IMG/VR virus record: IMGVR_UViG_3300031715_000001
Location: 42,689-106,688 of that record
Length of the DNA: 64,000 bases
Strand: one strand, 5' to 3'
DNA from: a virus
Shown here: piece by piece, positions 19,036 to 62,268 of the stretch
Layout of the letters: every line of letters begins with the position of its first letter
Position numbering within the stretch: position 1 is the stretch's first letter
Made by a program: the position numbers and the translations under genes
The notes under the pieces: generated by a model
Seen by the model: the letters and a program-made list of their open reading frames with translations, nothing else
The model's database searches: none
What the model was told of the DNA's origin: nothing

Positions 19036-19347
19036 CGTCTCGTGCGCTCCTGGAACCCGCGCACGTTGGGGATTAGTTATTTCGTATCGTCAGCAGCGCA
19101 TGGAAACTGGTGCTCTGGAAACTCGGCAGGATCGCCGGGATACTCACCACCGCAGTTTTCGCAGTAGGTGACCGTCTCGTACGAGTCGGCCACGTCAGGA
19201 GGCCCACCAGCACGCTGACTCTTCCATTTATGCTCCATCTCGCCAGTCTCCCACGTGCCCGTCGGCATCGAGCGAAGACGGGTCCCCGTACTTATCCGCA
19301 GGATAAGGCCGGGTATCCAGGATGCGAGTGGACGAGGGCACGAAACG
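19036..19347. mobile_element. hairpin-flanked cassette A (left end 19036-19074, right end 19254-19347)
   Basis: Left CGTCT-cgtgcgc-tcctggaaccc-gcgcacg-TTGGGGATT; inverted right end cgtgccc-(75-nt loop)-gggcacg-AAACG; outer inverted repeat cgtgcgtYtcgtgc. Confidence 0.7.
19077..19238 (-). CDS. cassette A cargo, small CxxC protein (53 aa)
   Basis: GGAG RBS; MEHKWKSQ...YCENCGGEY; lies entirely between the two hairpins. Confidence 0.55.
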   Translation of the reverse strand: MEHKWKSQRAGGPPDVADSYETVTYCENCGGEYPGDPAEFPEHQFPCAADDTK

Positions 19348-19367
19348 CACGATAGCCTCAATTCCAT

Positions 19368-21884
19368 TTAACAACCACTTGAGCTAATTAAGAGCCCAAA
19401 TGTGAAATTCATAGAGCAACTTCCATTAACTACTGTCTTGCTGGCTCCCGCACCACTCGGAGTCTGGTATCCGATGTTGGTGAAGAAACCATTCACGCCG
19501 TCCATGGTGGCTTTCACATTTCCTGATGCATCCGTGGCCGCGCATTGCCCGGCTCCGCTCAATCCACCTCGCGAGCCGGCATCGCACCACACCACTAGTT
19601 CGCCGCCAGCGCTATAGCCCGAAAACGAGTAAGGCGCCGTCGCGCTGCTCACCCAATTCCCATAGGCCGCTGTGTAGGTATTTCCGCGGTGATGGTCCGC
19701 GTTGTCGATCACGTTCGCCCCGCCGACCTGGAAGGCTCCCGAGGTGTTCGATACACTCACCGCTCCATTTCCCGTTACCCAAAAAGCGAAATTCGAGTTC
19801 GAGAATGTGAATAAGCCACCTGTGTTGTTGGCCGTCATCTGCAGGAACTGAACACTGTTCGCGGTCCCGATCTGCTGCGGCAACGTTAAAGCTACGGTTG
19901 ACCCGGAGGGTGTAACGGTGATCGCGTTCGGCTGCGCGCCATTTGTGATCGTCAGCGTACCGAGGTTGTTCCAGGCGGTCCCGTTGAAGACTTTTTCCTG
20001 AGCCGCGCCGTTATCCCAGTACATCGCCCCTGCGGCGAAGGTGTCGCCCGTGGTCAAGGTCGGAGTTCCCGAGGAATTTCCGGTCTGGATGTAATGAGCG
20101 GCGCTGAAGCTCAAGGCCGTCATTCCGGCGTCGACCGCTTGGACGGCATCGAACCGGGTATTGGTCCCGAAGGGAAGTACTTTGAATCCGTTGTCTGATT
20201 GCACGTAGCCGCCGGCTACCGTGATGGCTTGATTCGATCCCGTTCCGTGAACGGTCAGCGTATTGATGGAATTCTGCCAGGTCAGGTTGGCGCTACCACC
20301 GAAGATTCCGGCGTTGTTGTATTGCAGGTTCGTATCGGCGCCCGCCGGTGTTCCGCCCCCTCCGCCTCCCCCGGAAAGCGCTACCCAGGCCGTTCCGTTG
20401 TAGTATTTTTCGACACAAGGGCTTACGCTCGTATCGCAGAACATCATGCCCTGGTTCAAATTGTCGCCTGGAGTAATGGGCGCGGATCCGCCGCCCGATC
20501 CGGGAGGACCGCTCGAAAATCCGGTGGTGATGTAATTGGCGGCAGTGAAGCTCGATGCCTTCATTCCGGCGGGAGTGATGATGGAATCGTAGCGCGTGGC
20601 AAGACCGAAGGGAACTGCGAAACCCCAGTCGGAGGTTACTAGGCCGGTTTGGACCTCCAGGGCCGGGATACCGGGACCGCCGGCGTTCCCGACTACATGC
20701 AAAATCTGGTTGGTATTGTCCCACCAGAAATTGGCGCTTCCGGCGAAAGAGCCCGCGCTATTGAACTGAACGTTGGTTGTCGCGCCACCCGGCGAAGTAG
20801 CGCCGCCCGAGGCCAGATTCACCCAGGCTGAGCCGTTATAGAGTTTCTCCTGGCAGGGTGAGCTGCCGGTATCGCAATACATCGTTCCGGCGTGCGGAAA
20901 GCCAGGCTCGCTGCCCGTGGCTGGAGGCGCTCCGGACGAGGCCCCGGTTTCAATGTAGTTCAAAGCTGTGACGCTGGTTGCGAGCACCCCCGTGCCTATT
21001 GCGCTGATCGCGCTGTAGCCGGCGCTGGTTCCGTTCACCAGGAATCCGTAATCGGAGCTCACGGAGGCCTTTGAGACTACGAGGGACGCAGGCGCGAGGC
21101 CCAGGCCCGTAAAGGTCCCGGATATATGCACAACCTGATTGGTGTTGTCCCACCAGAAATTGGCGCTGCCCGCCAGCGCGCCCGCATTGTTGTACTGGAC
21201 GCTGGTCGTCGGGCCGCCGGGCGTCCCCCCTCCGCCGCCTCCACCTCCACCGCCCGGAGCGAATACAAGATTGCCCGCGCCATCGGAGGTCAGCGCGCCC
21301 GCCGCGTCCTGTTGCGGCAGCGTCCAGGCCAGATTCTGCGACATGCCCGGATTGGCCTTGAATATTGCGTAATTCGGGGTTGGATTTCCGTTGCCGACTT
21401 CGAGGGCCTGTCCGGCGATCACATTCGCGCCGGCCGTAAAATTTCCGCCCACGATTACCGGGCCACCTCCGCCTCCATTGCTGTTGCTGATGGTGGCTCC
21501 TGACAATGTCCAGTAATTCCCATTGCCCACTGGGGTTACCGAGGAACCGATCAGATTGTCCCCGCCCGCCCCCACGATGACGGCGCCGGTTGAAGTTGTG
21601 ACGACTAGCTTGTAAGGAACATTGGGAGTCAACCAGATCCCCGAAGGTGTGCGTCCTGATCCATCGAGGATGATGGGATTGGAATTGGCTAACGTTCCCG
21701 CTGAGGTGGTGAAGGTCCCTAATGGCGTGCCTGGACAACTTGAGCCTGCCGCACAGGTGTAAACTCTGCCGTTCGATAGTGGATTGCCGTTGTTATCAAA
21801 GAACTGCTGATTAGCCCAAGGAACAATAAGAGCTTGACCGCATAAATAAAACGGGAGTAAGAGAAGTAGAAGTAGTTTACGCAT
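19368..21884 (-). CDS. tail fibre/spike with virion-attachment N-terminal domain
   Basis: QQFFDNNGNPLSNGRVYT.AAG...NPIILDGSGR motif typical of podovirus fibre attachment domains; three repeats of PGG.TT.VQYNNAG.FAGSANF.W; signal peptide MRKLLLLLLLPFYLCGQ. Confidence 0.8.
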   Translation of the reverse strand: MRKLLLLLLLPFYLCGQALIVPWANQQFFDNNGNPLSNGRVYTCAAGSSCPGTPLGTFTTSAGTLANSNPIILDGSGRTPSGIWLTPNVPYKLVVTTSTGAVIVGAGGDNLIGSSVTPVGNGNYWTLSGATISNSNGGGGGPVIVGGNFTAGANVIAGQALEVGNGNPTPNYAIFKANPGMSQNLAWTLPQQDAAGALTSDGAGNLVFAPGGGGGGGGGGTPGGPTTSVQYNNAGALAGSANFWWDNTNQVVHISGTFTGLGLAPASLVVSKASVSSDYGFLVNGTSAGYSAISAIGTGVLATSVTALNYIETGASSGAPPATGSEPGFPHAGTMYCDTGSSPCQEKLYNGSAWVNLASGGATSPGGATTNVQFNSAGSFAGSANFWWDNTNQILHVVGNAGGPGIPALEVQTGLVTSDWGFAVPFGLATRYDSIITPAGMKASSFTAANYITTGFSSGPPGSGGGSAPITPGDNLNQGMMFCDTSVSPCVEKYYNGTAWVALSGGGGGGGTPAGADTNLQYNNAGIFGGSANLTWQNSINTLTVHGTGSNQAITVAGGYVQSDNGFKVLPFGTNTRFDAVQAVDAGMTALSFSAAHYIQTGNSSGTPTLTTGDTFAAGAMYWDNGAAQEKVFNGTAWNNLGTLTITNGAQPNAITVTPSGSTVALTLPQQIGTANSVQFLQMTANNTGGLFTFSNSNFAFWVTGNGAVSVSNTSGAFQVGGANVIDNADHHRGNTYTAAYGNWVSSATAPYSFSGYSAGGELVVWCDAGSRGGLSGAGQCAATDASGNVKATMDGVNGFFTNIGYQTPSGAGASKTVVNGSCSMNFTFGLLISSSGC

Positions 21885-21952
21885 GGATTTTCTTTTTGGG
21901 TCGACGCTCTTCAGATCTGTCGTGGTAAATTCGGTTTGAGGACGTTCGCGCT

Positions 21953-22435
21953 ATGAATGATTTCGCCCGTTCGATCAAAGAGCCGATCCGTTTCTTTTTG
22001 CGATCGGGCCCCGATTCCTGGTTAGCGGCGCTGCTGGCGCATGCCCAGGACGGCAAGCTGGGGTTCTACAGTTGCTGTTGTTTCGTCGGAAGCCGCACTG
22101 CGACGCATGCGCTCCGACCGGCTTATGGGACCAACAACGCCTTTGTAGAGTCTCTCCATTGTGAGTGGCGGTGGTCTTCCCCACACCATTGGCTGCCTAG
22201 TATCGCTGGCTCCGCTGACCATCTAAAGGAGGCTCGTAAGCAGCCTGGAGGAACGGAAGCTGAAATTGCCTTCAGAGATCTTGGTCTTCGCTATGGAGTG
22301 AACGACGATGCACTTCGCCGGCGCGTCGTGATTCCCATGATCAAGGCCGAAATGCGGAGACGCGAGAGAGCAAGCGAATCCCCAACGCACGCGGGCTCCA
22401 GGAGCGTGCGAAACGAGCCAGTATTGACCTGTTAA
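21953..22435 (+). CDS. antisense moron / cassette B cargo, hypothetical protein
   Basis: 160-aa ORF with GAGG RBS filling the gap between two minus-strand virion genes; runs through a hairpin element at its 3' end. Confidence 0.65.
   Translation: MNDFARSIKEPIRFFLRSGPDSWLAALLAHAQDGKLGFYSCCCFVGSRTATHALRPAYGTNNAFVESLHCEWRWSSPHHWLPSIAGSADHLKEARKQPGGTEAEIAFRDLGLRYGVNDDALRRRVVIPMIKAEMRRRERASESPTHAGSRSVRNEPVLTC
22377..22415 (-). repeat. hairpin element (TTGGGGATT type), right end of cassette B
   Basis: AATCCCCAA-cgcacgc-gggctccagga-gcgtgcg-AAACG. Confidence 0.8.
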
Positions 22436-22469
22436 ATACCCGTACTGGGGACCGTTCCACGTGCAACGT

Positions 22470-25400
22470 TTACCGTGAACTGGCCGTGGCGGCGCGCTGT
22501 TGCTGCAGCACATGTTCCGCCGCGAAAGGATTGGTGGAGTTTCCAATTAGTCCGGTGCCGACGATGCTCATATTCAGTACATTGTTGAGCACAGCGGTGG
22601 CGTTTATCTTGACCGGTCCTACTTTGACGCGAGCCGCTTCCTGTTCCCGCTTTTCGTTGCCTTGAAGTCCCGCTATGTCACCAATTGAATTCGCGAACGC
22701 GTTCAGTTGCGCCGCCGCCGCTAGGGCGGTTCTCCAAGTAGTAGGCCAGCCAGCCGGAGTCTTATCCGGTATAGCCGACATCAGTTCAGGCGCTAGTTTC
22801 CCGCTGCGATCGCGGAAGCCGGTGAGGTACGGCTCTTTGGATAATGTGGCGGTCACAGCCGCTCGCGGTAGCGGGCCAAGTACCGGATGGCTGAAGGTGT
22901 TCACAATGTCGCGCATCCCAGCCTCGCGCGCCTGCCCGCCCGTCCCGCGCTCCATGAGCGTCTGGTAAGCCCCCGGGACTCCAAGCGCCATCGCTCCGCG
23001 ACGGATCAATGGATTGAAGGCGTAGACGTTTACGTAACCAACTTCTGGCCCCTTCCCCCAGAGCGTGTTCCCGAGTGTGCTGTGCCGGAACTTGTCGATT
23101 CGCCCCGCACCGCTTCCCACGGGAATGGACAGGAACTTCGAGCGCTTATCCTCCCAGGGATATTTGCCTGTGAGTTCCTTGCTCAACAGGAACCAGACTC
23201 CCAGCGTTCCGAGGATTCCAGCGGTGAGAGCGTGCCAGAGCCGCAACTGCGCTTTGTTCTTCGGAACCCACGGAGCTTTTCCTTCTCCGGGCGTAATCGT
23301 CGGACCGGAACTGAACATGGCGTTCACACCGTTGCGGATCATCGTAGACCCGGCGGTGTAGAAGGGTGAAAACGGGAATGCTTTGACGTGCTTCTCGAGA
23401 TCCGACCAAAGGGCCGGTGTGTAATTTCCAAGTTGATTTACGAACTCGTTCAACTCTTGGGGCGACACATTGGGATTGATTGCCTTGGCGACTCTCCACA
23501 TGATGTAGCGGGCGCGCGCGTCAATCCCTTTGGGACCGTAGAGCATCGGAGACAGCGAGTATCGGACCAGCTTCGCTCCGGTCAGCTTCGCGAGTTCCTT
23601 ACTGTACGTTACCGAAGCATACCGGGTCGGAAGAGCGCCGGCGTCGGCCATTTCCTGAAAGGCTTGGACCGCCTCTTCTTTTGTGGGGTCCGTTGTGGCC
23701 AGCATTCCGAGCGCCTGGAATTTCTTGGTCAAGATATTCGAAGATGCGAGCATGCCTCCGAGCGACGAAGAGAGGAACGGAGTATTCGCAATGAGTGCGC
23801 CCACGAGATTGGCGGAGTGGAAAGTCATGTCCGCCGGGCCCTGCAACGCGAAGGTATTGACCATCTGTAGCGCCCTGTGAATAGCACCGGGCTCTGGTCT
23901 TGAGTCTTTATCGACCACGTCCTTGATTTCGTCGTAGAACCATTTCGGCATGTAAGCTTGAACGGCTTGGGTGTAGAAAGACTTTTCTCCCTGCTTGATG
24001 ACCATTCGCGGAGGCGTGACGGTAACCTTCTTGGTGGGATATTCCTTGCCGCGCCACAGGAATGTATCGGTATCGACCGAACTGGACCTGGGTACTTTCT
24101 TCATGAGGCCCGCGTCATAAGCCGCTTGAATTACGGACGCCCTTCCGCCTTGTGATAAGTCTCTTGCGAGAGCTTGACGAAAGCGCTCGATGTCGACGAC
24201 ATAGCCTTTTTTCGAAAGTCCGGTCGCCATGACGTTCCGCGAGTTACCGGGTTTCTTGAAGCCCAGCTTTTCAAAAAAGGTCGGTTTGCCTTCTTCGGCC
24301 GCGAGTAATGGAAAATAGCGTCCCGCTGGTCCTAGAGCGGTGGTAAAGACGCCTTCGTTCAAGGCGTGATTCTGCGCGATGGGGTGCTCGATGCGCTCGC
24401 CGTAGATCCGGTCGGCTTCTTTCACCTTCGGATTGGTTTTGATCTGATCGCGGATGTGATCGAAGTGATCGGTATCCATGGCGGGACGGACGTTGTTGGC
24501 AGCGGTCTCAAAGAGCGGCCAGAGGTAATTCCGAAGGTCTTCCCAGCGTTTCTGCTCGACCAGGGCACTGGCTATTTGCGCGGGGTTTTCCGGCATTCCG
24601 GCTCTACCCTGTAGATTGTCGAGCATATCCACGAAGTCTTGCGACATCGAGCCTTCTTCGCCGCCGCCCGAGAAATCCTTTTCCATCTGCTCGTCCGTCA
24701 GTTTTTGCGCTTGATTGGCGAAGTCCTGCCAGCGGTCCCGGATTCCCTGGAGGCGTGAGTCGACGTAATAGAGAAACAGCGATTCCACCGGGACTCCGGT
24801 GCCTTCGAGAGCTTTGCGCATCAGCGGTAAAGATGCTCTGATGATGGCCGCCGAGCGAGCTTCAGGCGATGCTCCGCGCAGCATGGCTTCGTGGACGGGA
24901 GGCGATGCACGCTTGGTTTGACCGAGACCGCGGATTAGCGAGGATTCGACCGCGCCTCGGACGCTGTAGTTCCCTCCGCGTGCTCCTTCGTAACCGGTTT
25001 GGATGAGGTCCCCCAAGGCCGGGGCCGATCCACGTTCCCCACGCTTGCCGGGGACTACATCCCGTGTTTTTCGGGGTCGTACTTCTCGGTCGGTTGTGGT
25101 GGGGGATTCGTCAGGACCTGGGCGTGGCTGCTCGTCAGAAAACGAACTCTCTTCAGGGCGGTAGGCGGATATATCTGGTCCAGAGCTTCCTGAAGGCCCT
25201 TCTCCCCGTTCCGTTGCAGGCCCACCAGGCAATTCTTGAGATTCGCTTGGGGCTCGTTCAGGGCCGAAGGCGGAGAAGACTTCGCGGGCGATTCGTCCTG
25301 GAGCTTTAGATCCATATTCTCTCCTCAATGTTCGCACGTATTGCGCCGCAAGGGAACGCGCGTCTGGTACCGACAGGCCCAGTTCCTGGTAGCCCTGTGG

Positions 25401-28400
25401 GCGCATTAAACGCACGGCCACTTCCGTAGCTTGTTCTGGTGAGTCAGGAGCGAGATCGCTGTACGTTCTAGAAAGATGAAGCGCAGCCTTCTCGTAAACC
25501 GGACTGCCGGTAAAACGAGAAAGAGATTCTCCGAAATGCTTGGTCGCCGTTCCCTGAAGGGTCGCCTGGAGCGCGTGGTGTAATTCTTCCGTGAAGGCAG
25601 TATCGCGATGCTGATCCATTGCCGGAGAATCCGAGACAAGGATAAAAGACTTTCCAGCCGGTCCCGCCGAATCGAGCATCTCACGAAGACGGCGCACTGG
25701 CTCGGGCGCGTTGTGAGGGAAAAGGCGTCCGAGGTTACGGGAGAGAACGAACGTATCGCGTGGTGAGATATGAAGCGCGGCGTGAGTAAAAGGGATCGAG
25801 TCCTGTGTTTTATTCCCGGCGCGGGCGACCAATTCCATGGCACTCTGGTTTCCGAGATAGGCGACGGCAAGGTCGTGATATTGCGGCCCGATGGGTATTG
25901 GTTCGATGACGGCTCTGCGGGCGTGGAATCCGTTCGGTGCCTCGCTTATGTATTGGGCGTTTCGCACGTCCTCGGGAAGATGCGGAATGCGGGAACCCTC
26001 TATGCTGACTGGTTCAGAAGCAAGCGCAGTCAGCGACCTCAGTTTCTCTGGTACAGCGTCGTTCCTGATCGGCATGACGAGGCCAACAAGCTTGCTTCCC
26101 TTGTGAGCCTGAAATGCCTCGTTGGTCGCGATCGCGGTCCACTTATCCGGCTTGTGCGCCTTATTGAGGTAATCGAAGTACCCTGAATCCATCACGCCGC
26201 CGTTCGAGAAGACGACGTATTCGTGAGCGCCTTGTTTGTAGAAGCCAACCGGAGTGACTGTTTTGCCGCCCTTGTTTGGGATGACCTTCGAAATATCAGG
26301 CCCTTTTCTCTCTACCTCCGACGGCGTCCAATATTTCGGCGGTGCTCCCTCGACCAGAATGTGTCCGTTCGTGTGCCACACGCCGCCCTTGAATGGAATT
26401 GGCCCGTTGAATCCAAACCTACTATCACCCGGATCTTCAATCTTTCCAGACCCAGGTTTGTACTCTGACATGGGCAGTCCAGCTTCGGCTTTAGCAAAAG
26501 GACTTGGCTCGCCCTTCAAGAACGCTTCCGCAACGGCGCGGGCTTCGGCCTTTGGATACCCAGCGCCAACGATCTCAGTTTCCTGTCTGCCGTATTTATT
26601 CGCTTCGCCGGGAGGTGTGTCGTAGTATTTCCGCTCAACATCCCAACCGTCTGAAATGTTGCGCGACTGCCGGAGGTCTACGCGCTCGCCAGTCGGCTTA
26701 CCTTCGGCGTCCACGCCGTAAGCGGTGAACACTTTTCTTCCGTTTTCCGCTTTCTCTTTTCCGAAAGTAACGGTTGAAGCTTTAACCTCGATGGGCGGAC
26801 CCTTCTTCTTGGCCTCGGGAACCTTTTGTTTCTGTTTTGCCAGTGCATCATTCCGACGGATGTGTCCGTCACGAATGACTTGATCGGCATATTCGTAGTT
26901 GGACGGAGTCTGCAGGTTTGCGCTGGCGCGGTATTCTTCCGCCTCTTCGAGGAGATTCCCGTATTCCTGAGACGCTGGTTTCCCGCGCTTCAGCCGCTCC
27001 TCCAGCGATTCGATCCAGGTACGCACGAGTCCTGGGGAAGCTGCTGTTCCTGGTACCTCATCAGGCTTTGGAGCAGCGGCCATCGCTTGCTGCTCCTTTT
27101 TCTGCACCGACGGAGCGGCACGCTCTGGCATCTTCGGCTGCTCTGGCGCGGGCGCTCCTTCCAATGCGCTTGGGCTCTTGGGGGCGAGATAATCTGTTGG
27201 TTGCGTGACTGATGCCCGCGACACGATCCTTGAGCCTTTGTCTGGTGGCGTAGAATGCGTCCTTGGCTGCTCACCCGCGATCGGACTACCATCCTCGTTG
27301 ACGCGCTGCTCGGTTAGTGTCCAACCGCCGCCCGGTTTCTCGTCGTACGCTAGGACCTTGTCGTACGTGTGCCAGTAGCCGCTAAAGATTACGTTGCCGG
27401 GCGTGTAGAACTCACGACGGCGAGCGATCAACGGAGGAACCGGCTTGGACTTCTTCGCTGTGGCCTTTGTTGGCTTCTCCCTAGTTGTTGTTATAGGCTG
27501 CTGCCGCATCGCGGATATATTCAGCGGCGTCCATGCGGAAGGTACCAGGGTACGACCATTACCATGTATCGCGCCCCATAGCCACGTCTTTCCGTTCGGC
27601 TCGCGGGTCAGGAAGGATTGGCTCTTGGACGGACCTTCGACTTCGAGTCCTAATTCTTTGGCCTTCGCTACGAAAGCGTCATTGGCCGCGTGCCGCAAAT
27701 CTTCGACTTGATCGTTCGTAAGACCGGACGCGCTCTTTACAGTTTTGGCACTTTCACCTTTGGCGCGCTCAGTTTCGGTACCTTCGCCGGCGGGAGCACT
27801 TGTTGGACCCTCGGTACCGCGCTCTGAAATGCTGGATGTAGAGGCTCTGGGACTGGATGGGCCAGGTTGGGCACCTTTGGATCCGCCAGCTTCGGAGGTT
27901 TCACTAGGCGTGGCTTCGGTAGGCGGATGCGCAGGACGTTGGGGGACGACTTCGGTTGGCTTGGATTCATTCTTCTCACCAGTTTTAGACTTTTGTGGTT
28001 CTTGCTGCCGCCCTGGAGTTGCGGCAGCGCTGGATGCTTGTGCTCCGAGTGGGATGTCCGTTCGTTCGCCCGTCTTCGGCATGAAATGAACTCGGTCAAA
28101 TTCGATTTGCTTGCCAGTCAGGCCCGGTACCGCGCGGCCGGCGTACTTCTTTCCTTCGCCCGCTTTCACATAGGCGATGGTCACGTGGGGCTTGTACTCC
28201 GGGAATTCGTTGCCGTTGGGGAGCTTGGAGAGTTTCTTATTCAGTCGCTTCAAACCCTCCGAGTCGACGGCGAGTTTGAGCACATCGTAATCGGGATGCT
28301 GTTTCGACGCAGGGAAGATCGAGATGCGACCAATGTTAGCTTTGATCGGTCCTTGGTCCGCGATGAGCTTTTGCACGTCAGCGGGTTCATTGGTATGCAA

Positions 28401-33463: not shown

Positions 33464-33494
33464 TTAAAAAAGAATGAAGGTCTCAGACTTGGAA

Positions 33495-34020: not shown

Positions 34021-34028
34021 GAAGAAAG

Positions 34029-35979: not shown

Positions 35980-36053
35980 TTAGGTTATGGTGCGTCTTGC
36001 GCCCTCCTGTCAACGGGCGCAATGGAGAGGGGATGGTTTACCCGGCGGTCCGT

Positions 36054-44843: not shown

Positions 44844-44856
44844 TACGCTTGCGAAT

Positions 44857-45183: not shown

Positions 45184-45197
45184 AACCAAAGCCTTGA

Positions 45198-52812: not shown

Positions 52813-53272
52813 CGCTGTGTTGCTTTTTTACGCGTATAACCGCGTGCGCTTTTCGTCCGCCCGCAATCAACTGAATCAGAGCCGGGGTCGTCAGCTTAGC
52901 GCGCTTCGGATCCGCTTCCCAGAGATTGCAGCAACCCATTGGGTCGATCTTGCCCGGTGTTGCCCCCGGTGACCGCTTATCCACGCGCTTGCAATCGTCG
53001 GGCGCTTCTAATTCCTCGCAACGCCGGCACCCGAACCCTGGTTTATTCTCGACGTATCCGGTTTCGATTCGGGTCTTGTCGTGATTGCCTTCGATCCGTC
53101 CCTTGCTTAGATCTTTCCAGTCGTTGCATCCGCCGAATGGCTTCACGTCTTCATCAGACTTTACGTAGTCGGTGCACTTCCCTTTAGAAGAGATGAAGGC
53201 ACACTCACTACAGTGCAGTTCGCATCCGGAGGCAAGAATGTACCCGGCTTCTGCTTTCGTGAGTTTTTCCAA
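52793..53272 (-). CDS. tandem HiPIP-like (putative Fe-S) Cys-rich protein
   Basis: Two copies of GY...CxxC...C...P.G.C..W. Confidence 0.5.
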   Translation of the reverse strand: MEKLTKAEAGYILASGCELHCSECAFISSKGKCTDYVKSDEDVKPFGGCNDWKDLSKGRIEGNHDKTRIETGYVENKPGFGCRRCEELEAPDDCKRVDKRSPGATPGKIDPMGCCNLWEADPKRAKLTTPALIQLIAGGRKAHAVIRVKKQHSDGWNDA

Positions 53273-53278: not shown

Positions 53279-53614
53279 TTATTCCGTCTCGTGCCGCCCT
53301 GGAGTTGCGGCACGTTGGGGATTCCCGCCTGCCGTGGGGGCCTGTTTCTCTCTTGTGACTTCGGCGAGTTTGCCAGCCTCTTCGTCATCGTACTTAAACG
53401 CGCTCCACTCACAGTGAGCTTTTGCGGCTTCGAGCGTCAGATACGATCTATCCACGCCTGCGACTCTTAGATCTGTGACGAACAGGAGGTGCCCGAAACG
53501 GGGCTCGCAAATCGTGGCGTAACATAGCTGGCTGTTGCGGTCGACTAGATAGTGGACGGTGTACCGCTCTCCATCGGCATCGACCGGCGTAGCCTGCAGC
53601 CATTCAACTTCCAT
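53279..53614 (-). CDS. cassette I cargo, hypothetical protein
   Basis: 111 aa; ends by reading through the hairpin element (NPQRAATPGRHETE). Confidence 0.55.
   Translation of the reverse strand: MEVEWLQATPVDADGERYTVHYLVDRNSQLCYATICEPRFGHLLFVTDLRVAGVDRSYLTLEAAKAHCEWSAFKYDDEEAGKLAEVTREKQAPTAGGNPQRAATPGRHETE
53285..53323 (+). repeat. hairpin element (TTGGGGATT type)
   Basis: CGTCT-cgtgccg-ccctggagttg-cggcacg-TTGGGGATT. Confidence 0.8.
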
Positions 53615-53857: not shown

Positions 53858-54184
53858 CTATTCTCCGTCCGTGGCTGGAGAGGCGGGCGGTGTGTACGGC
53901 TTCTTGGTCTTCATCGGCCCCGCTGGCTGCTCGGTGATCTCATTGCCTGCAGGTTCGCTGTTTGTCGTTCCGGGCGGCACGCCTAAATGCTCGCCAGCAT
54001 GTGCCAATGCTTCCTGGATGGTTGAGAATGATCCGGTGTGCTTACGCATCGGGAAGGGATCTTTCTTCGATCCGGCATTGAGGGTGTGGACGTCGGCTCC
54101 TCCGTTTTCGGCTTTACCGATGTGCACTTCTTTCACTTCGCCGTCGGCGATGGCTTTGGCCTTGGGCTTTACACTGATCTTCAT
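53858..54184 (-). CDS. hypothetical protein
   Basis: AAGGAG RBS; 108-aa ORF in the operon direction. Confidence 0.6.
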   Translation of the reverse strand: MKISVKPKAKAIADGEVKEVHIGKAENGGADVHTLNAGSKKDPFPMRKHTGSFSTIQEALAHAGEHLGVPPGTTNSEPAGNEITEQPAGPMKTKKPYTPPASPATDGE

Positions 54185-54223
54185 GATTTACTCCTTGGGA
54201 TTCTGTTCTTACTGGTTTTGGTG

Positions 54224-54891
54224 CGTTTCGTGCCGCACTGAATTAGCGGCACGTTGGGGATTGGCTCACCGAGCTCCCGCAGCACCTCGCCGGTCTCGGA
54301 ATCGATAAGTTCAATTCGGGTGTAGACGATACCTTCCCGCCAGTCCTTCTCGAAGCGATGAAATCTTATCCCGAGCACTGCGGAAACCTTGGATTCAGCG
54401 CCCATTTGAGAGCGAGCCGCCAATTCCCGAAGGGTCCACGCCGGTAACGGCTAAGCATGTCTCCCGGCTCCATATTCGCTTCTGCCCACCAGACTCTTCG
54501 GCCGTCGATCATCGCAGCGTAAACGCTCGGCTTGCGCTCCTGATAATTAATGGCTTCCGGGTCGCCGATCCACTGCCGAACAACGACCGCACCATCTGAT
54601 CGCGTTCGTATATCGAGATGGGAAAACTGCGATGGATCAATCCTCCCGGACGGCAGGACTTGAATCAATAGCCGGACGAGAAGGTTACGGTAGTGACGGT
54701 CGGCGTACACATCGTAATAGTCAGCCCGTTTGCGTTGGCCCGTGTCATAAGCGCCTGGAGCGAGTTGCTCTTCGTCCCACACCTCGGGCAACAACTGGAT
54801 TGGTAGAATGCTCATTCGGAATTGCCGATAACCGAACTGTCGGGGTACGGGACCTCTTGACCGTGCGCGGGTTCCAGGAGCGCACAGGACG
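54224..54891. mobile_element. hairpin-flanked cassette J (left 54224-54262, right 54828-54891)
   Basis: Left CGTTT-cgtgccg-cactgaattag-cggcacg-TTGGGGATT; right ATAACCGAACTG...cgtgcgc-gggttccagga-gcgcaca-GGACG. Confidence 0.7.
54366..54815 (-). CDS. cassette J cargo, hypothetical protein
   Basis: 149-aa ORF starting just inside the right end. Confidence 0.55.
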   Translation of the reverse strand: MSILPIQLLPEVWDEEQLAPGAYDTGQRKRADYYDVYADRHYRNLLVRLLIQVLPSGRIDPSQFSHLDIRTRSDGAVVVRQWIGDPEAINYQERKPSVYAAMIDGRRVWWAEANMEPGDMLSRYRRGPFGNWRLALKWALNPRFPQCSG

Positions 54892-55174
54892 GAATACTCT
54901 CTTTCGGAACTTCAATCTTCTTTTTTGGTGATGGGAACATCTGCATCCGCATTGCAGTATTGGACACGGCGTGCTGGACCACTTCTTCAAGCGATCGCGG
55001 GCCTTTGGGCTTCTCACTGTGGATCTTGTCCCTCTCGAGCAGCCGGCATTTGGAGGTACAGCGCGGGCAGAAGGGCGTCGGTGATATGACTTCGGCGGCC
55101 TTGCCACCTGGGCGCCAGCTCCTGAAGTCTTTCGAACATCGGTCGCAGATATAGAACGAACGGGTTTCGCTCAT
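54812..55174 (-). CDS. zinc-finger hypothetical protein
   Basis: CDRC...CPRC motif; coupled to the portal stop; 3' end runs through a hairpin element. Confidence 0.5.
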   Translation of the reverse strand: MSETRSFYICDRCSKDFRSWRPGGKAAEVISPTPFCPRCTSKCRLLERDKIHSEKPKGPRSLEEVVQHAVSNTAMRMQMFPSPKKKIEVPKESIPSCALLEPAHGQEVPYPDSSVIGNSE

Positions 55175-57978: not shown

Positions 57979-58139
57979 TGGGAGAGTTGGGCTCTACACT
58001 CCAGCCGGTCGCCGCACTGGTAAAACGCAGAGACCGTCGCTCATAGAAGCCCCAGGACGAATCGCTGAGCCTCGGGTGATACTTCAGGGTCACCTTCGCG
58101 CAACATAGAATCAACAACTTCCAGTTTTGAATCTTGGTT

Positions 58140-58251
58140 CGTCTCGTGCGCTCCTGGAACCCGCGCACGTTGGGGATTGGACACCGATAACCGGATCGTT
58201 CGGTTATCGGTCCGCTCTTCACTGCGCCCGTTGCCAGGAGGGCGCAGGATA
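58140..58251. mobile_element. empty hairpin-pair element K (no cargo, 112 bp)
   Basis: TTGGGGATT-type end (58140-58178) nearly abutting an ATAACC-type end (58187-58251). Confidence 0.7.
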
Positions 58252-58259
58252 GAAACTAT

Positions 58260-59813
58260 TCATCTAGCCCAGCTCATAGATCCACCCACATTCCTTGGTT
58301 CTGGTTGGTTAGATCCTAAAACTGGAGGAGGAGCAACCTTACGTACAAACGTGCACGCCAGCGCATCGGGATAGTCCGGAGATTTAATCTTGCGTTTCGA
58401 CATTGACTCTTTCGACTCCAGCGTGAGTTTTCCGTGGTTGTGATGAAACCCTGGCCCCAGGAACTCCTGAGCCAGTTTCTCATCGTCTGGTATCGCTCCC
58501 AGACGCATCCACTCGCGCATACGGTCCCACATCAGAGAGCGCACATTCAGATAATGCCGCTCACCCGACGTCTCTCCGAAATTGACTTCAAAGCAATTGG
58601 TGAAGCCTGAGTCCTTCGCCCGCTGGATGATCACCGCTCCGAAGGCCTGGTCGCCGAATAACGCGGCTACCTTGCGCTGCGACGAACGATCGGCCATGAT
58701 GTCGCACATCTTCGCGACCACCTGATCACGCGGTGTATCGCCCGGCAGGATCACCGGAGGAATAGACTTACCGTCCAAGCCTCTCCGGAATGCGAATACG
58801 TGCCTTGCCATTCCGCCGTTGGCCGCGTCATACCCGACTATCAAGGGCTCGTCGGGAAGTACGCGGTGAATACGTCTGCGCGCTTCGTCGACGATCTGCT
58901 GCGAGATGAACTGTAATTCGCTCGCTCGCGGACACAGCCCCAGGACGCGGACGCGGAAAAGATCGGAATCTTCGCCCCACTCTTCCCGCCACTCCTCGAT
59001 GAACTTCTTGTTGGTGAAAGCGCTTTCTAAACCTGACCAGATGCGGGTATTCCACAGCTTCGAGGCCTTCCCATTGGTGACGTTGTGGAACTCGCCCGTA
59101 TTGCGGAGCATCTGCCCCCAGGCGAAGAACATCGGCTCCCCATCGGTCATTCCGAAGTAGGCCGGCGTCCAGTTTTCATCGGGAATTTCCGATGCTTCGT
59201 CGAAGAGGTACCAGGAGGTAGACGTTCTGGCGTGCTGGCCGGCGAAGGATTGGGCTCGTTCTTTTGAGGCTGTCTTGGGGTTACATTTCCATTTCTCGCG
59301 CTTCAGCGGGTCCTTGTGAAAAACACCCGATTTCTGGATGTCGAACAAGTCCTTGCCGTGCCCGGCATTGCCCCAGTACATGATGTCGGCCCAGGTGCGC
59401 TCCTCCAGTTGCTGGTAGGTCCCTGCGGTCACAGTGCCGACCGACAGAGGCCGCGTGCGCAACAGAAACCAGGCGATCCAGGCTCCCAGCGTCGATTTGC
59501 CGGTTCCATGCGCCGACTGTATTCCCATCCGGATGGGTTCGACCGGCGTGTGTCCGTCGAAATTGTTGGCCGTTATCTTTTCTCCCAGGTCTATTAGGAA
59601 CTGGGTCTGCAGGGCGTCCGGCCCCTCCATGTGCTCGAATTCGGTGCCCTTTTGCTTCCATGGCCATTCGTTTAATACAAAGCCTAAGGGATCGTGCTTG
59701 TATACCTCTGCAGTAATCTCGGTAGAAGAGGAATGCAGGCCCTGTAGTTTTCCTTCGAGTAAAGAGGCGGCTCCTCTCATGAGATCGAGGTTTTGGTGGT
59801 AAAGATCTAACAA
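58260..59813 (-). CDS. terL: terminase large subunit
   Basis: Walker A SAHGTGKS; Walker B YLFDEASE; nuclease motifs VGYDAA and SPDYPDALACTF. Confidence 0.9.
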   Translation of the reverse strand: MLDLYHQNLDLMRGAASLLEGKLQGLHSSSTEITAEVYKHDPLGFVLNEWPWKQKGTEFEHMEGPDALQTQFLIDLGEKITANNFDGHTPVEPIRMGIQSAHGTGKSTLGAWIAWFLLRTRPLSVGTVTAGTYQQLEERTWADIMYWGNAGHGKDLFDIQKSGVFHKDPLKREKWKCNPKTASKERAQSFAGQHARTSTSWYLFDEASEIPDENWTPAYFGMTDGEPMFFAWGQMLRNTGEFHNVTNGKASKLWNTRIWSGLESAFTNKKFIEEWREEWGEDSDLFRVRVLGLCPRASELQFISQQIVDEARRRIHRVLPDEPLIVGYDAANGGMARHVFAFRRGLDGKSIPPVILPGDTPRDQVVAKMCDIMADRSSQRKVAALFGDQAFGAVIIQRAKDSGFTNCFEVNFGETSGERHYLNVRSLMWDRMREWMRLGAIPDDEKLAQEFLGPGFHHNHGKLTLESKESMSKRKIKSPDYPDALACTFVRKVAPPPVLGSNQPEPRNVGGSMSWAR

Positions 59814-59836
59814 GCAATGGGAAGAGAATGATCGAG

Positions 59837-59866
59837 CGTTTCGTGCGCTCCTGGAACCCGCGCACG
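59837..59866 (+). repeat. hairpin element upstream of terL
   Basis: CGTTT-cgtgcgc-tcctggaaccc-gcgcacg. Confidence 0.8.
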
Positions 59867-59882
59867 CTGAAGAGAGGACTGA

Positions 59883-60224
59883 TTACCGGGTGTTCCGTTT
59901 ATTTGTGAATTCGCTACGCAGCGCTTCGATAACCTTCGCTTGCATCGCCGGGTACTTGGCAGCGATGTTCTCGTGAGGATTGAATAACGAGCCTTTGCCC
60001 TTTAGGTACGCTGGTAACCTGACCGTGATCGTGTCGCCGCGCTGAGGCACGGGCATTTCCATGCCCCGCAGCCGTGCAAGTACCTGGTTCAAATACAGCT
60101 CGTTGTACACCAGCGGCGACAACCGATCAACTGCGCGACATTGCCGCCCCATGGCGGGCTTGGGCGCGATAAGCGCGGCCAGGGTTGCAAAGAAGGAACG
60201 GCGGTCGAGTCTCATGTCAGGCAT
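59883..60224 (-). CDS. small mosaic protein with twin-arginine-like leader and capsid-like peptides
   Basis: RRSFFATLAAL leader; GDTITVRLPAY and SLFNPHENIAAKY segments. Confidence 0.5.
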   Translation of the reverse strand: MPDMRLDRRSFFATLAALIAPKPAMGRQCRAVDRLSPLVYNELYLNQVLARLRGMEMPVPQRGDTITVRLPAYLKGKGSLFNPHENIAAKYPAMQAKVIEALRSEFTNKRNTR

Positions 60225-61194
60225 GCAACAGCCCTACCTCGCGCCTGCGGAATCCCTCGACCGGCTTGGGCTGCATTTCCATGCCCCGCAGCCGTTGAAG
60301 TACCTGCTCGTAATCCTGCTCCAGGCAGACCACCGCGACCACCAGCTCGCGCAGATGTGCAATGCTCAATCCCTCGGTCTCATCGCACCACCGTTCCAGC
60401 GGGACCTTCGCCCCGGCGCACGCTTTTCTGAGATAAACCATTCGCGCCGCGGCCGATGGCATACCGATCTTTACCCGCTCGTCGAATCGCGACGGCCGGT
60501 TGATCAGCCTGGCGCCCAGCCGCTCCGGATAATTGGTCGTAGCGACATAGACCACGTTGTCGGTCTGGTGCTCGCCATCGAGCATCGCCAGGATGGAGTG
60601 CTCGCCGTAAGAGGCGATCGTTTCATCCACGTCCTCCAGCACCACGATCAGCGGTCTTTCCGGTTCAATCCTTCGCAGAAAGACCAGCGCCGCCACGGTC
60701 ATGCGTGGATCGGAAGAGACGATCACCACGCCGTCATACTGGCGGATGATCTCCTGCACCAACAATTGCGCCGTTACCGTCTTGCCGCCGCCCGGGGGAC
60801 CCCACAGCAGTACACCGCGTTTGTAAATCAGCCCGTGCTTTTGATAGAGATCCTTGGCGCGCCAAAATTTCCGGATACCGGCCAATACCCTCAGGTGCGA
60901 TGCCTCCGGAAGCTCGACGATCTCATCGGAGAGGATAACCATCCTCTGCAGGAAGAGACCATTATCATCCTGTCCCACGCAGTATGCGCCGGCGTTCAGC
61001 CGCTCCAGGGTACGTGAGCCGGGGCGAAACCGATTATTGGGGAGGACCTGCCAAAGCGCGTAGTCGACGTCGGTTCGAGAATTCGGACTGGGCGAACTCG
61101 GCTGGGCGCACTCCGCATTGTTGGCGCGCTCACGAAGGAACGGCGCTGGAGGCTCGCTAGCCAGCAACTCGCCCAGTTCCTGTTCTTCGGTCAC
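60217..61194 (-). CDS. classical AAA+ ATPase (BCS1/Cdc48-like core)
   Basis: KRGVLLWGPPGGGKT, VVLEDVDE, ATTNYPERLG and RPSRFD motifs. Confidence 0.85.
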   Translation of the reverse strand: MTEEQELGELLASEPPAPFLRERANNAECAQPSSPSPNSRTDVDYALWQVLPNNRFRPGSRTLERLNAGAYCVGQDDNGLFLQRMVILSDEIVELPEASHLRVLAGIRKFWRAKDLYQKHGLIYKRGVLLWGPPGGGKTVTAQLLVQEIIRQYDGVVIVSSDPRMTVAALVFLRRIEPERPLIVVLEDVDETIASYGEHSILAMLDGEHQTDNVVYVATTNYPERLGARLINRPSRFDERVKIGMPSAAARMVYLRKACAGAKVPLERWCDETEGLSIAHLRELVVAVVCLEQDYEQVLQRLRGMEMQPKPVEGFRRREVGLLHA

Positions 61195-61202
61195 GCTTCA
61201 GT

Positions 61203-61772
61203 CTACTTCTTTCGCTCAGGCTCGGCAGGCTGCACTTCCGCCGCGGGTAATTGTGCCGCTTCCTTCTGCATCTGTATGCTCTCGGCAGCCTGTATTCCTT
61301 TGCGCAGCCATTCGAGGAGGTCCCGTACTTGCCCCTCGGTCAGATTGTCGAGATCTCCCTCGAGCGGCGCTACTCTCTGGCGGTTGAAATGGTCTGGGTC
61401 CCCGGCTTCGAGGAACTTGATCATCAGGTGATCGGAGTAGATGCGCTCGTAGACCAACTGGCCCTGGTGTCTGACCGGTTTGCCCTTGTAGAGCAGCAGC
61501 TTGAGCACGCCGTCGTGTGCCCTCCGGACAGCTTCGTCCTTCATGCTCTGCAGCCACCGCTTCTCAGCCGCCTTGAACCGTACCGGATACGTCGGGTCTT
61601 CGTCGAGCCACCGGTAATGCTCCGAGCGCGCTACCTTGGCCCAGCGGGAGGCGTCGAGCACCCGCCCGCACTCCGCGACACATGCCAGAAAGCGTTCCTG
61701 GGACGCCAGGTTGAACCTCGCGCGCGCGTAAGCGTGTCCGATGGTGTCTGATGGGGGGCCCGAAACGGCCAT
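61203..61772 (-). CDS. terS: terminase small subunit
   Basis: HTH-like segment QERFLACVAECG.V..A....V.RS.HY.W; EAVRRAHDGV...YSDHLMIKFLEA.DP motif; position upstream of terL. Confidence 0.65.
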   Translation of the reverse strand: MAVSGPPSDTIGHAYARARFNLASQERFLACVAECGRVLDASRWAKVARSEHYRWLDEDPTYPVRFKAAEKRWLQSMKDEAVRRAHDGVLKLLLYKGKPVRHQGQLVYERIYSDHLMIKFLEAGDPDHFNRQRVAPLEGDLDNLTEGQVRDLLEWLRKGIQAAESIQMQKEAAQLPAAEVQPAEPERKK

Positions 61773-61780
61773 AACGGGTC

Positions 61781-61978
61781 CTAGTTCGGTACGCACTGCC
61801 AGGTGTATTTGCAGTTGCGGCCATTCTCGTCGCAAGTGCAGACTGGCGCCATTCGAGCGCATCCGGGCGGGGGTGGGGGCGGTGGAGGTGGAGCGCCACA
61901 GCCCTGTCCGTTCGCAGTACTGGTTTGCATCGTCATCAGCAGGATTGCAGTTAGGACTAATAACAGTGTGGACTTCAT
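61781..61978 (-). CDS. small secreted Cys-rich poly-Pro peptide
   Basis: Signal peptide followed by six Cys and nine consecutive Pro. Confidence 0.55.
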   Translation of the reverse strand: MKSTLLLVLTAILLMTMQTSTANGQGCGAPPPPPPPPPGCARMAPVCTCDENGRNCKYTWQCVPN

Positions 61979-62163
61979 GCGGCTCGCTTCTTTCTAGCTT
62001 TACGTCTAGCCTTGGCCAGGCGCTGGCCGATCGCGGCGCGGTCCTTGTCGCTCATTTGCGCATATTTGGCTTCGTTCAGCTTGCGAGCAATTTCAGATCG
62101 CTCATCAGGTGAAGTCTTACTCCAACGCTTTTTTGCCAGTTCGGATGCCGCCGCGTCCGTCAT
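61975..62163 (-). CDS. small basic helical protein (possible DNA-binding regulator)
   Basis: KRWSKTSPDERSEIARK / KYAQMSDKDRAAIGQR duplicated motif; first gene of the leftward unit. Confidence 0.55.
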   Translation of the reverse strand: MTDAAASELAKKRWSKTSPDERSEIARKLNEAKYAQMSDKDRAAIGQRLAKARRKARKKRAA

Positions 62164-62203
62164 CCCCTACAGTCTACACCATTATGTCCGTCCGCACGCG
62201 CAA

Positions 62204-62268
62204 ATAACCGGAACGTCGGGGGATGGGGAACTTTTCAAAGCGCCCGTGCTACAGGAGGGCGCGAAACG
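62204..62268 (-). repeat. hairpin element (ATAACC type) in the divergent control region
   Basis: ATAACCGGAACG...agcgccc-gtgctacagga-gggcgcg-AAACG. Confidence 0.75.

Follow-up and report, generated by a model that had tools for sequence, protein, structure and literature searches.

The stretch of DNA analysed here (64,000 nucleotides, hereafter the window) belongs to the ca. 107-kb (106.7-kb), 97%-complete genome of an uncultured, temperate, P22-like soil phage. It contains numerous short hairpins placed between genes. A covariance model (R1, alignment A2) made from 39 hairpin copies of the phage genome and searched with filters off detected 18 short copies in the window, scoring 36 to 56 bits, while the best remaining match reached 16 bits. 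Another two copies (19254 and 38024) share the foot, stem and tail of the short ones and have a loop of ca. 72 nt rather than 10 to 11 nt, so that all 20 sites listed in the original prediction are present. Of the degenerate sites that it added, the one at ~37331 is a plausible relic and the one at ~17729 is doubtful. The family is not restricted to the virion module, as had been assumed, since R1 located long forms and at least 21 further short copies elsewhere, in the other (first) 42 kb of the genome. Outside the window, the family was found in the rest of the genome and in two relatives, and not in the parts sampled of four other relatives or in the bacterial genomes sampled. Rfam gave no match to the family. 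The CGTYT pentamer of the foot is by itself not enriched (233 observed versus 290 expected); the family signal resides in the composite element. The pattern of hairpin-bounded junctions is real and unusual.

The sequence of the 7-bp stem changes from copy to copy yet stays paired, as first described: 97.9% of the 234 cells in the 39-copy alignment are paired, five of the six stem pairs show compensatory changes on both sides, and none of 500 shuffles reached the pairing score (slid controls were 14 to 66% paired). G-U pairs occupy just two of the 234 cells, and this near-absence fits a palindrome acting at the DNA level better than an RNA element. The loop length of 10 to 11 nt in the short copies, with CTG (CCG once) at loop positions 3 to 5, was also confirmed. 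At least six copies have nested inserts of 60 to 135 nt in the loop, one of which recurs next to a TnpB gene, on its 3' side.

At the left of the window, a short type I copy (19033-19077, plus strand, R1 52.9 bits, tail TTGGGGATT), with its foot ca. 17 nt from the ATG of a minus-strand gene that begins near 19020 with a signal-peptide start, is partnered by the long-loop copy at 19242-19350 (minus, 26.4 bits), whose loop has a nested module B. Directly past the stop of a 3151-aa gene lies another short type I copy (22374-22418, minus, 49.2 bits), for which a search for a partner found none. This large ORF itself includes two diverged, decayed copies, both on the plus strand. One, type II-like (27994-28075, 16 bits), has a perfect 7-bp stem and exactly the loop sequence of the 53285 copy, and encodes aa 1284-1309, the C-terminal border of a 2'-5' RNA-ligase-like module; the second (28556-28630) encodes aa 1099-1124, and its foot abuts the N-terminal border (aa ~1125) of the same module, which is rearranged in relatives P0071-P0074. 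The unit 34023->33492 has a short copy as right arm (33492-33536, plus, 37.2 bits, foot 32 nt from the start of gene 31934-33463) and as left arm a type II copy (33940-34023, minus, 48.3 bits) with foot, hairpin and box (33956-33976), located 9 nt past the stop of gene 34029-35027 and followed by AGGAG and then the ATG of an ORFan of ca. 151 aa (33483-33939). Two type II copies are partners at 35990-36057 (plus, 52.6 bits, box 36037-36057, foot 14 nt from the start of gene 35416-35979) and 36690-36760 (minus, 39.8 bits, 18 nt past the stop of gene 36775-37269). The type I relic (37331-37370, plus), recognised in the sequence and with no R1 match, has lost its 3' stem and retained TTGGGATT; it is probably the right arm for the long-form copy at 38120 (long-loop copy 37984-38123, minus), which has a type II tail (CCGGTCCGTTTAT box near 37984-38001).

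Further on, a short copy with a Shine-Dalgarno sequence (GAGGGG) as tail (39931-39975, plus, 36.1 bits) precedes the GTG start of the plus-strand ORFan 39970-40343, and the right arm of this plus-strand unit (39931->40328) is a type I copy at 40284-40328 (minus, 49.6 bits). The next unit (41294->41799) begins with a short copy (41294-41338, plus, 36.2 bits) immediately upstream of the plus-strand ORFan 41335-41802, which had no homologue in a 5.8-billion-protein database, and has a type I right arm (41755-41799, minus, 53.4 bits) 15 nt past the stop of gene 41811-42206. A type II copy without partner (45112-45186, minus, 52.9 bits) lies 15 nt past the stop of gene 45198-45959 and faces a plus-strand block of two genes (44388-45123), and a type I copy (53282-53326, plus, 52 bits, foot 13 nt from the start of gene 52793-53272) is likewise solo. 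The filled post-portal unit is formed by a type I right arm (54221-54265, plus, 48.5 bits, foot 40 nt from the start of gene 53858-54184) and a type II left arm (54816-54894, minus, 43.3 bits), and the 149-aa cargo ORF (54366-54815) has its ATG 13 nt beyond the box (54828-54848). An empty unit of ca. 112 bp (58137-58254, minus, 55.6 and 43.6 bits) comprises a type II arm (58211-58254), a palindrome (58187-58207) and a type I arm (58137-58181, plus). The last two copies, both type II, are partners at 59834-59902 (plus, 48.6 bits, box 59882-59902, foot 24 nt from the start of gene 58260-59813) and 62204-62271 (minus, 45.2 bits, box 62204-62224).

The common anatomy is a unit of ca. 112 bp with both feet outward: a T-rich stretch, CGTYT foot and 7-bp hairpin, ca. 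10 to 15 nt, a 21-bp palindromic box, cargo or nothing, and an inverted hairpin with an ARACG foot. The two arms of a pair are unlike in both stem and loop, making a REPIN-type long hairpin impossible, and folded as single-stranded DNA the empty unit 58137-58254 gives three hairpins (z = -4.76). The box (ATRACCGG-N5-CCGGTYAT) is conserved in sequence; matches with up to three mismatches number 12 versus 1.0 in shuffles, every one beside a hairpin, and the identical sequence appears in two relatives (L006 and L010) despite their different stems. No sigma-70-type promoters or U-tract terminators coincided with the elements, their counts in 13 kb equalling those of shuffles, and the distance between a TTGAAG-like tail and a TTAT box (20 to 22 nt) exceeds standard promoter spacing.

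The arrangement in inverted pairs with CGTYT outermost stood up, with eight such pairs instead of the seven first counted: 19036/19350L (long-loop), 33495/34020, 35993/36757, 39934/40325, 41297/41796, 54224/54890, 58140/58252 and 59837/62268. What the last one encloses is not morons but the small terminase and an AAA ATPase, together with two small ORFs. The preference for gene junctions, with avoidance of the tight ones, was borne out (copies at 1 of 15 junctions of <30 nt versus 13 of 23 wider gaps), and apart from the two old copies the intergenic location is strict. Feet lie 7 to 43 nt from a stop or start codon. In sense copies (n = 7) the foot is 7 to 18 nt past the upstream stop, and in antisense copies (n = 13) it is 13 to 43 nt from the start of the gene beyond; the distance on the tail side is variable (11 to 1134 nt). 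Cargo ORFs begin immediately past the inner tail in the direction of that arm (genome coordinates 23142, 25664, 33438 and 38106; window coordinates 34020, 39934, 41297 and 54890; likewise 6402 in L006), this tail being the 21-bp box or a Shine-Dalgarno-like GGGGA/GAGGG. Where the tail holds a Shine-Dalgarno sequence, the start codon follows 6 to 16 nt further. An ORF of at least 56 aa comes after 9 of 11 type II copies oriented along the main transcription direction versus 2 to 3 of 9 oriented against it.

The relatives L006 and L010 (portal ca. 58% identical) carry the family, which was absent in the 3 to 13 kb sampled from four relatives of similar divergence and is thus dispensable. Empty units of ca. 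112 bp occur in three phages, all with one orientation relative to the next gene; those of L006, L010 and genome position 36237/36369 lie directly upstream of, and co-directional with, that gene (portal included). Such a constant fit of the units to the neighbouring gene points to selection on expression. Aligning relatives upheld part of the expected cargo exchange: behind the portal, the junction has no cargo in L006 and L010 and the 149-aa ORFan in the window, and solo copies differ between L006 and L010 at three junctions. On the other hand, L013, L012 and L009 retain these core genes and their junctions but lack the hairpins, and the ends of a 3.2-kb block in which L006 and L010 are non-homologous do not coincide with hairpins. 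One soil contig skips 54378-54821 and so lacks exactly the 149-aa cargo ORF, with one breakpoint 6 nt beyond the box and the other 112 nt from a hairpin.

Our preferred reading, held tentatively and somewhat short of probable, is that of a boundary-and-leader cassette, similar to the PeSLs, that doubles as a recombination substrate. On this view, the phage lineage would place a tripartite module of ca. 112 bp at junctions between genes, with the hairpins as its two outer arms and the feet adjoining the stop codon of the preceding gene and the start codon of the following one, and accessory ORFs would be accommodated inside, starting right past the inner tail. We infer that the box may bind a sequence-specific dimeric protein controlling the unit, and that the hairpins could serve as boundary structures, either transcript-end/insulator hairpins or cruciforms. 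As tens of copies of one putative protein-binding site in short intergenic gaps throughout a temperate phage genome, the boxes, though not the modules as wholes, resemble the stoperators of Cluster A mycobacteriophages. The latter are asymmetric sites of 13 to 14 bp, without hairpins and in one orientation relative to transcription, unlike the palindromic, hairpin-associated box found here. With more than 40 alike copies over 107 kb, recombination at or between copies might add, delete and move the flanked genes, by analogy with PeSL cassettes. Among the genes of the window is one for a Sak4-like annealing protein (62782-63816).

These promoter-early stem-loop cassettes of T4-type phages combine a stem-loop, a promoter and a Shine-Dalgarno sequence between a stop and the next ATG, and flank ORFans, and their recombination has been shown experimentally to yield indels and circles (Arbiol et al. 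2010, PMC2839356; Comeau et al. 2014, PMC4122927). Both systems have a stable stem-loop, a conserved linear segment and a Shine-Dalgarno sequence, both flank ORFans, and in both, related phages differ at the sites in that the genes flanked there have been inserted, deleted or replaced. However, PeSLs lie in early hyperplastic regions, share a single direction and have a recognisable sigma-70 promoter, whereas here we found inverted, foot-out pairs in a virion module and no promoter consensus. The 21-bp palindromic box, the covarying perfect palindromes, the loop inserts and the copies inside an ORF are also particular to this phage. Altogether, the system looks more like the T4-type promoter/stem-loop cassettes than like a proven new gene-capture machine. 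Some features nevertheless count against a boundary/leader role: the lack of a sigma-70-type promoter or U-tract terminator, with the tail-to-box spacing of 20 to 22 nt, the half of all copies that are antisense to the surrounding genes (PeSLs share one direction), the nearly pure Watson-Crick stems, and also the nested loop inserts, the two copies inside an ORF and the relatives that lack the family.

Essentially the idea of the original prediction, a dedicated structure- or site-specific recombination system is in our view unlikely, albeit a serious contender. Hairpins (as cruciforms or single-stranded DNA) and/or the palindrome would be sites for inserting, excising and swapping cassettes at gene junctions and even where domains of the polyvalent ejection protein meet. 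The foot-out inverted arms recall transposon ends, and the Watson-Crick palindromes, the CTG fixed in the loop, the recombinase core-like layout of the box (7-7-7 / 8-5-8) and the nested loop inserts would all suit such sites. The turnover of solo copies, the orthologous junction found empty or filled and the soil variant minus one cargo ORF agree with capture, as do the decayed copies exactly at the borders of the module shuffled in P0071-P0074. An enzyme of the host might act on the sites, and candidates for the proposed enzyme outside the window exist elsewhere in the genome: a DNA-invertase-family (Hin-type) serine recombinase (genome 2137-2736), a tyrosine integrase, two TnpB and EndoVII-type nucleases (potential cruciform cutters). 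Yet none could be linked to the elements by position or co-occurrence, and no HUH/Y1, DDE, IS110 or Rep gene was found in the 97%-complete genome. Other points against are the L006/L010 block bordered away from hairpins, the soil breakpoint 112 nt off, and the unit orientation that always suits the neighbouring gene. To our knowledge, the box resembles neither dif sites nor the hix/gix consensus.

The analogies invoked for capture were not supported. REPINs, acted on by RAYTs (Y1 HUH), are similar in the short conserved motif beside a GC-rich palindrome, the inverted doublets, the intergenic location and the many copies, but this phage has no RAYT, the family is in no sampled bacterial genome, the arms are not copies of each other, and CTG is conserved in a loop of 10 to 11 nt. 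Integron attC sites also conserve structure over sequence, vary in central loop length and accompany promoterless small ORFs, and the GTTGGGG tail is similar to the R' box (GTTRRRY). Here, however, there is no complementary R'' box, no extrahelical bases and no intI/attI/Pc platform, the copies form inverted pairs rather than a direct array, and the tyrosine integrase scored 33.5 bits versus the 220-bit cut-off of the XerA/integron-integrase model.

Rather more doubtful is the idea of a miniature repeat of the MITE, Correia or REP kind, selfish and without dedicated function, that a mobiliser acting in trans would have spread through part of the lineage, its positions and orientations being tolerated insertion spots and the cargo nearby by accident. 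Correia, BOX and ERIC repeats are chromosomal elements of ca. 110 to 150 bp in hundreds of copies, intergenic and often upstream of genes, with inverted ends that pair mutually and a central protein-binding site; they can change expression and be cut as RNA hairpins, and the BOX build is modular and nested. Size, three-hairpin fold, inverted ends, putative central site and modular build are alike, but the present elements belong to a phage, each of their ends folds back on itself, and units enclose genes. Patchy presence among equally distant relatives, identical 39- to 41-bp copies at distant genome sites with other stem/loop variants in relatives, strictly intergenic copies save two old ones, nested inserts and decayed relics favour this explanation. 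In fact, the loop inserts, the in-ORF copies and the four hairpin-free relatives make mobile DNA fit at least as well as a control element. Nevertheless, orientation relative to the adjacent or enclosed gene is non-random, tails have been adapted into Shine-Dalgarno sequences 6 to 16 nt ahead of start codons, and the box kept across genomes with core proteins ca. 58% identical, together with the long-lived stem covariation, implies purifying selection. We saw neither a transposase-bearing parent element nor target-site duplications.

Phase-variable prophage expression, with the arms as sites of the Hin-type invertase flipping box, promoter or cargo, is highly improbable: although that gene, the short units with inverted arms and a conserved 88-aa gene reversed relative to its adjoining hairpin between the window and L006 would fit, all empty units of the three genomes share one orientation to the next gene, paired arms are unlike, the box differs from hix/gix as far as we know, and the sole opposite-strand joint among the reads has 32 nt on its shorter side, within a repeat.

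A family of short hairpins is spread along the genome of this phage. The element was present at every one of the 20 window sites of the original prediction, and its structure is indeed conserved although the stem sequences differ. In the alignment of 39 genome copies (A2), pairing held in 97.9% of cells over the 6 scored stem pairs, both sides had changed in 42 cells, and compensatory changes affected 5/6 stem pairs. None of 500 shuffles reached the observed covariation score, and slid controls paired far worse. G-U pairs are nearly absent from the stems. The covariance model of short copies built on this alignment (R1), run with filters off, gave 18 window matches of 36 to 56 bits, all others scoring ≤16 bits; the copies at 19254 and 38024 have an unchanged foot, stem, and tail, with a loop of ca. 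72 nt. Hairpins lie at gene junctions and avoid the tight ones, as expected from the prediction (1/15 tight junctions vs 13/23 gaps of ≥30 nt), and no strand bias of the copies was seen. The proposed siting between virion genes is real in the window, but the family is not confined there: R1 recovered 21 further short copies in the first 42 kb of the genome, along with several long forms, and the family is therefore genome-wide.

Three kinds of tail follow the hairpin on its 3' side. Type I is TTGGGGAT(T). The second kind is SD-like, reading GGGGGAGA or GAGGGG, and the start codon comes 6 to 16 nt later. Type II consists of nTGAAGAG, 20 to 22 nt, and a box that ends in CCGTTTAT or CCGGTTAT; this box makes up the right half of a 21-bp palindrome, ATRACCGG-N5-CCGGTYAT, which has 12 matches at ≤3 mismatches vs 1.0 in shuffles. 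In the relatives' contigs L006 and L010, the box is kept in sequence, beyond mere pairing, and so resembles a predicted binding site of a dimeric protein. For the type II tail, RNAalifold recovered the hairpin alone and no further conserved structure. The foot is always on the outer side of the hairpin, 7 to 18 nt past the stop codon in sense copies and 13 to 43 nt ahead of the start of the gene beyond in antisense ones; the distance from tail to gene is variable (11 to 1134 nt). The minimal unit, of ca. 112 bp, is made up of a type II arm, the box, and an inverted type I arm, and folds as three hairpins (z = -4.76). Such empty units occur in the focal genome at window 58137-58254 and genome 36237-36369, and there are three in L006 (plus one with ca. 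200 bp separating the arms) and two in L010. They are located just upstream of the next gene and co-directional with it, the exception being window 58137-58254, where two opposite-strand ORFs separate the unit from the portal. At least six copies carry a conserved loop insert of ca. 65 nt, and one loop insert holds an additional 72-nt piece. Kissing loops between arms were discarded, as the two loops of a pair mostly bear no relation to each other in the focal genome.

The cargo ORF of a filled unit shares the direction of one arm and starts directly behind the inner tail of that arm. Two cargo ORFs, of 149 and 155 aa, gave no matches in Pfam and PHROG searches; the former has weak homologues (best, 7e-8), and the homologue search found no relative of the latter. 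The idea that the pairs bracket unrelated cargo stands for these units, but the pair 59837/62268 encloses, at window 59883-62163 (minus strand), the small terminase (61203-61862), an AAA ATPase (60217-61194), and two small ORFs, so accessory genes are not all that the pairs enclose. Base composition did not mark the cargo as foreign DNA (inner segments, 0.51 to 0.60 GC, vs 0.57 for core genes). Hairpin tails provide several cargo ORFs with strong GGAG/GGGGA sites; most core genes have A-rich leaders without a Shine-Dalgarno sequence.

Relatives were located through portal alignment (A1). The family is present with ca. 14 copies in 18.7 kb of L006/L011 and 6 to 8 in L010, with different stems and loops. 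Neither the family nor a substitute hairpin family was found in the sequence examined of L007, L009, L012, and L013, and core neighbours are retained without hairpins in the last three. The junction after the portal and a small zinc-ribbon gene illustrates this turnover: L006 and L010 have an empty unit there, and the window unit (arms 54816-54894 and 54221-54265) holds the near-ORFan of 149 aa. Soil read contigs are short and sparse (depth <4 over most of the stretch), and one of them skips 54378-54821, i.e., the 149-aa ORF, starting 6 nt past the box and with the other breakpoint 112 nt off the hairpin. L006 and L010, whose core genes are ca. 75% identical, show single-copy differences at three junctions. 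Breakpoints among relatives were expected to coincide with hairpins; in the genomes compared, this held for the post-portal junction and the solo copies but failed for a 3.2-kb block differing between L006 and L010, the ends of which are not at hairpins. An opposite-strand read joint at 45158/58183, with a shorter side of 32 nt inside the repeat, was left out of the evidence.

Two diverged copies are located inside the ORF of a giant protein of 3151 aa (window 22470-31925, minus strand) with transglycosylase, His-phosphatase, FtsK-gamma, and 2'-5' RNA-ligase/Acb1-like modules, where they encode aa 1099-1124 and 1284-1309. In relatives, the RNA-ligase-like module aligns from aa ca. 1112-1130 through 1293-1334, i.e., beside the decayed copies, and the segments flanking it are rearranged in the homologous proteins P0071 and P0072. 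This module recurs in >100 giant phage proteins with different domain sets.

The single IMG/VR virus record, of 106,688 bp with the window as its terminal 64 kb, has a completeness rating of 97% and a 126-bp terminal direct repeat (window 63875-64000, genome 106563-106688, vs genome 1-126; 99.2% identity). The genome is probably complete and terminally redundant, or else the assembly is circular. A P22-type portal and coat are encoded, and the minus strand carries nearly all genes. Cultured phages are distant (best portal identity, 27%), and near-identical DNA occurs in soil metagenomes, no RNA data set being among those listed. One tyrosine integrase suggests a temperate lifestyle; it is not of the integron type (33.5 bits vs the 220-bit cut-off of the XerA/integron-integrase model). 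The genome also encodes a Hin-type small serine recombinase or DNA invertase (genome 2137-2736, minus strand), a Sak4-like protein, and two TnpB proteins without TnpA (genome 13628-14812, L002, and 40612-41772, L001; both on the minus strand and outside the window). The TnpB genes are not bounded by hairpin copies; 135 bp past the one at 40612-41772 are 94% identical to the loop insert of the long-form hairpin at genome 3563. Free-standing EndoVII-domain zinc-ribbon proteins are encoded at window 17772-18578 and 51086-51892 (both plus strand, opposite to the core genes), the whole genome holding two or three EndoVII-domain proteins. This pair resembles homing endonucleases, and one soil contig skips 51051-51702. 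After the invertase gene, there is a 30-bp GC-rich palindrome (genome 2068-2097), 15 nt of which recur exactly at window 15922-15936, within a tail-fibre-like gene of 1292 aa. This recurrence may mark a site of inversion or recombination, or may be due to chance (ca. 2e-4). Profile searches of the genome for Y1/HUH, rve, DDE_Tnp_1, IS110, and Rep_trans found none, and PF01797 (Y1 HUH, RAYT/TnpA), which matches control genomes, had no match in this 97%-complete one. The original prediction had placed the enzyme outside the window: the invertase and the integrase are candidates there, but no HUH/Y1 enzyme is, and none of the integrase, invertase, TnpB, EndoVII-type, or Sak4-like genes is positionally tied to the elements.

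The closest known system seems to be the promoter-early stem-loop (PeSL) cassettes of T4-type phages. In common with them, these intergenic composite repeats place a stable stem-loop in the gap from one gene's stop to the start of the following gene. However, PeSL copies are co-oriented with transcription and carry a sigma-70 early promoter, whereas here antisense copies make up about half of the family, in inverted pairs, and a consensus scan found neither promoters nor terminators at the elements, with a consensus that may not be that of the host. Possibly, the conserved tail and box serve as a promoter of a non-standard kind or as an operator. Inverted arms, a palindromic box, an empty socket state, nested loops, and domain-border copies are not described for PeSLs. 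The likeness to REPIN/RAYT and integron systems in the original prediction found no support. REPINs are two near-identical inverted REPs forming one long hairpin, but here paired arms differ in stem, loop, and tail, and the RAYT profile is unmatched. attC sites have complementary R''/R' boxes, extrahelical bases, and a direct array by intI-attI; here the foot and tail are non-complementary, the stems perfect, the arrangement inverted, and the integrase far below the integron cut-off. IS200/IS605 elements or PATEs combine imperfect subterminal hairpins at both ends with a Y1 TnpA and strand-specific insertion 3' of a short target; this genome has the two TnpB genes lacking TnpA, with the 135 bp shared between a TnpB 3' flank and one loop insert. 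MITEs have TIRs, a target-site duplication, and a DDE parent IS; here TIR-like foot-out arms are found between strongly diverged flanks, with no rve, DDE_Tnp_1, or IS110 gene. The family also matches no Rfam motif at gathering thresholds over 64 kb, and permissive searches with the unit, the long form, and the TnpB locus gave chance-level hits only. It agrees with the PeSL definition only in part and lacks the defining features of REPIN/RAYT and attC; we file it among the repeated regulatory/recombinogenic phage cassettes.

Several promoter and terminator types were rejected individually. For an N4-like hairpin promoter, no RNA polymerase signal was found (the 3151-aa protein has other domains), the spacing is unsuitable by eye for sigma-54, ECF, and sigma-28 promoters, and an intrinsic terminator would need a U-tract, absent in both orientations. 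Searches elsewhere gave no further members: the exact type I pattern had no match in IMG/VR, there were no portal relatives among GTDB genomes, and the hairpin pattern gave at least 120 single matches in GTDB genomes, none of them true by R1 among the matches listed. R1 also found nothing in 4 and then 151 genomes chosen from the locus of a Bryobacterales-titled match, with sensitivity limited to ca. 41 candidates scored per genome.

The best single reading, which we adopt tentatively, is a boundary/leader cassette that is also a substrate for recombination, given the rules of orientation, the adaptation of tails as SD sequences, the conservation of the box, and the documented behaviour of PeSLs (PMC2839356, PMC4122927). 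Judging from the first three features, the modules would act in the expression of the neighbouring gene; with no promoter or terminator consensus and no Rfam match, this mechanism is one that we infer. The near absence of G-U pairs, the inverted arms with feet outward, the inserts nested in loops, the intragenic copies at a module border, and the patchy distribution among relatives all favour a DNA-level mobile element and so keep two rivals alive, against which the orientation rules, tails, and box point to the boundary/leader cassette. The stronger one, a dedicated recombination system, is unlikely; the other, a selfish repeat, is less probable again. Ranking between them is a doubtful specific version, in which a structure-specific recombination system carried by the phage would use the ca. 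112-bp three-hairpin modules as sockets to add and swap accessory genes at junctions and entire domain modules within the giant polyvalent ejection protein. Its candidate enzymes would be the Hin-type invertase, the EndoVII-type cruciform nucleases, and the tyrosine integrase, and, if true, it would amount to an integron-like cassette platform dispersed over a virus genome. An inverton is very improbable: like Hin/Gin inversion systems with their inverted sites, the genome has an invertase, but the units show a single orientation in three genomes, the read data being sparse.

The acquisition and shuffling of accessory genes ("morons") by phages is mostly explained by illegitimate recombination. 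To our knowledge, PeSLs are the sole documented repeated cassette driving accessory-gene shuffling. The phage lineage described here would be a second case beside them, architecturally distinct in its inverted structure-conserved arms, putative protein-binding palindrome, visible empty state, and copies at polyvalent-protein domain borders. Should a protein read these modules, they would constitute an accessory-gene regulon of this group of uncultured soil phages; should an enzyme cut or recombine them, they would amount to a new cassette platform and might serve to insert genes at defined sockets.

Two further features were also observed. A conserved protein of 83 to 88 aa with the motif VPPxPDR..A.RK.RE.RMDC is encoded at window 44857-45123 (plus strand), L006 15224-15475 (minus strand), and L010 9030-9278 (minus strand), with the core genes always on the other strand, and its location in the window differs from that in L006 and L010. 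A perfect 95-bp direct repeat has its copies 1.1 kb apart (window 43575-43669 and 44676-44770), one in the 3' end of the gene at 43560-44087 and the other in a non-core block beside the hairpin at 45183; nearby, soil contigs skip from 44399 to 44855 and from 44661 to 44770.
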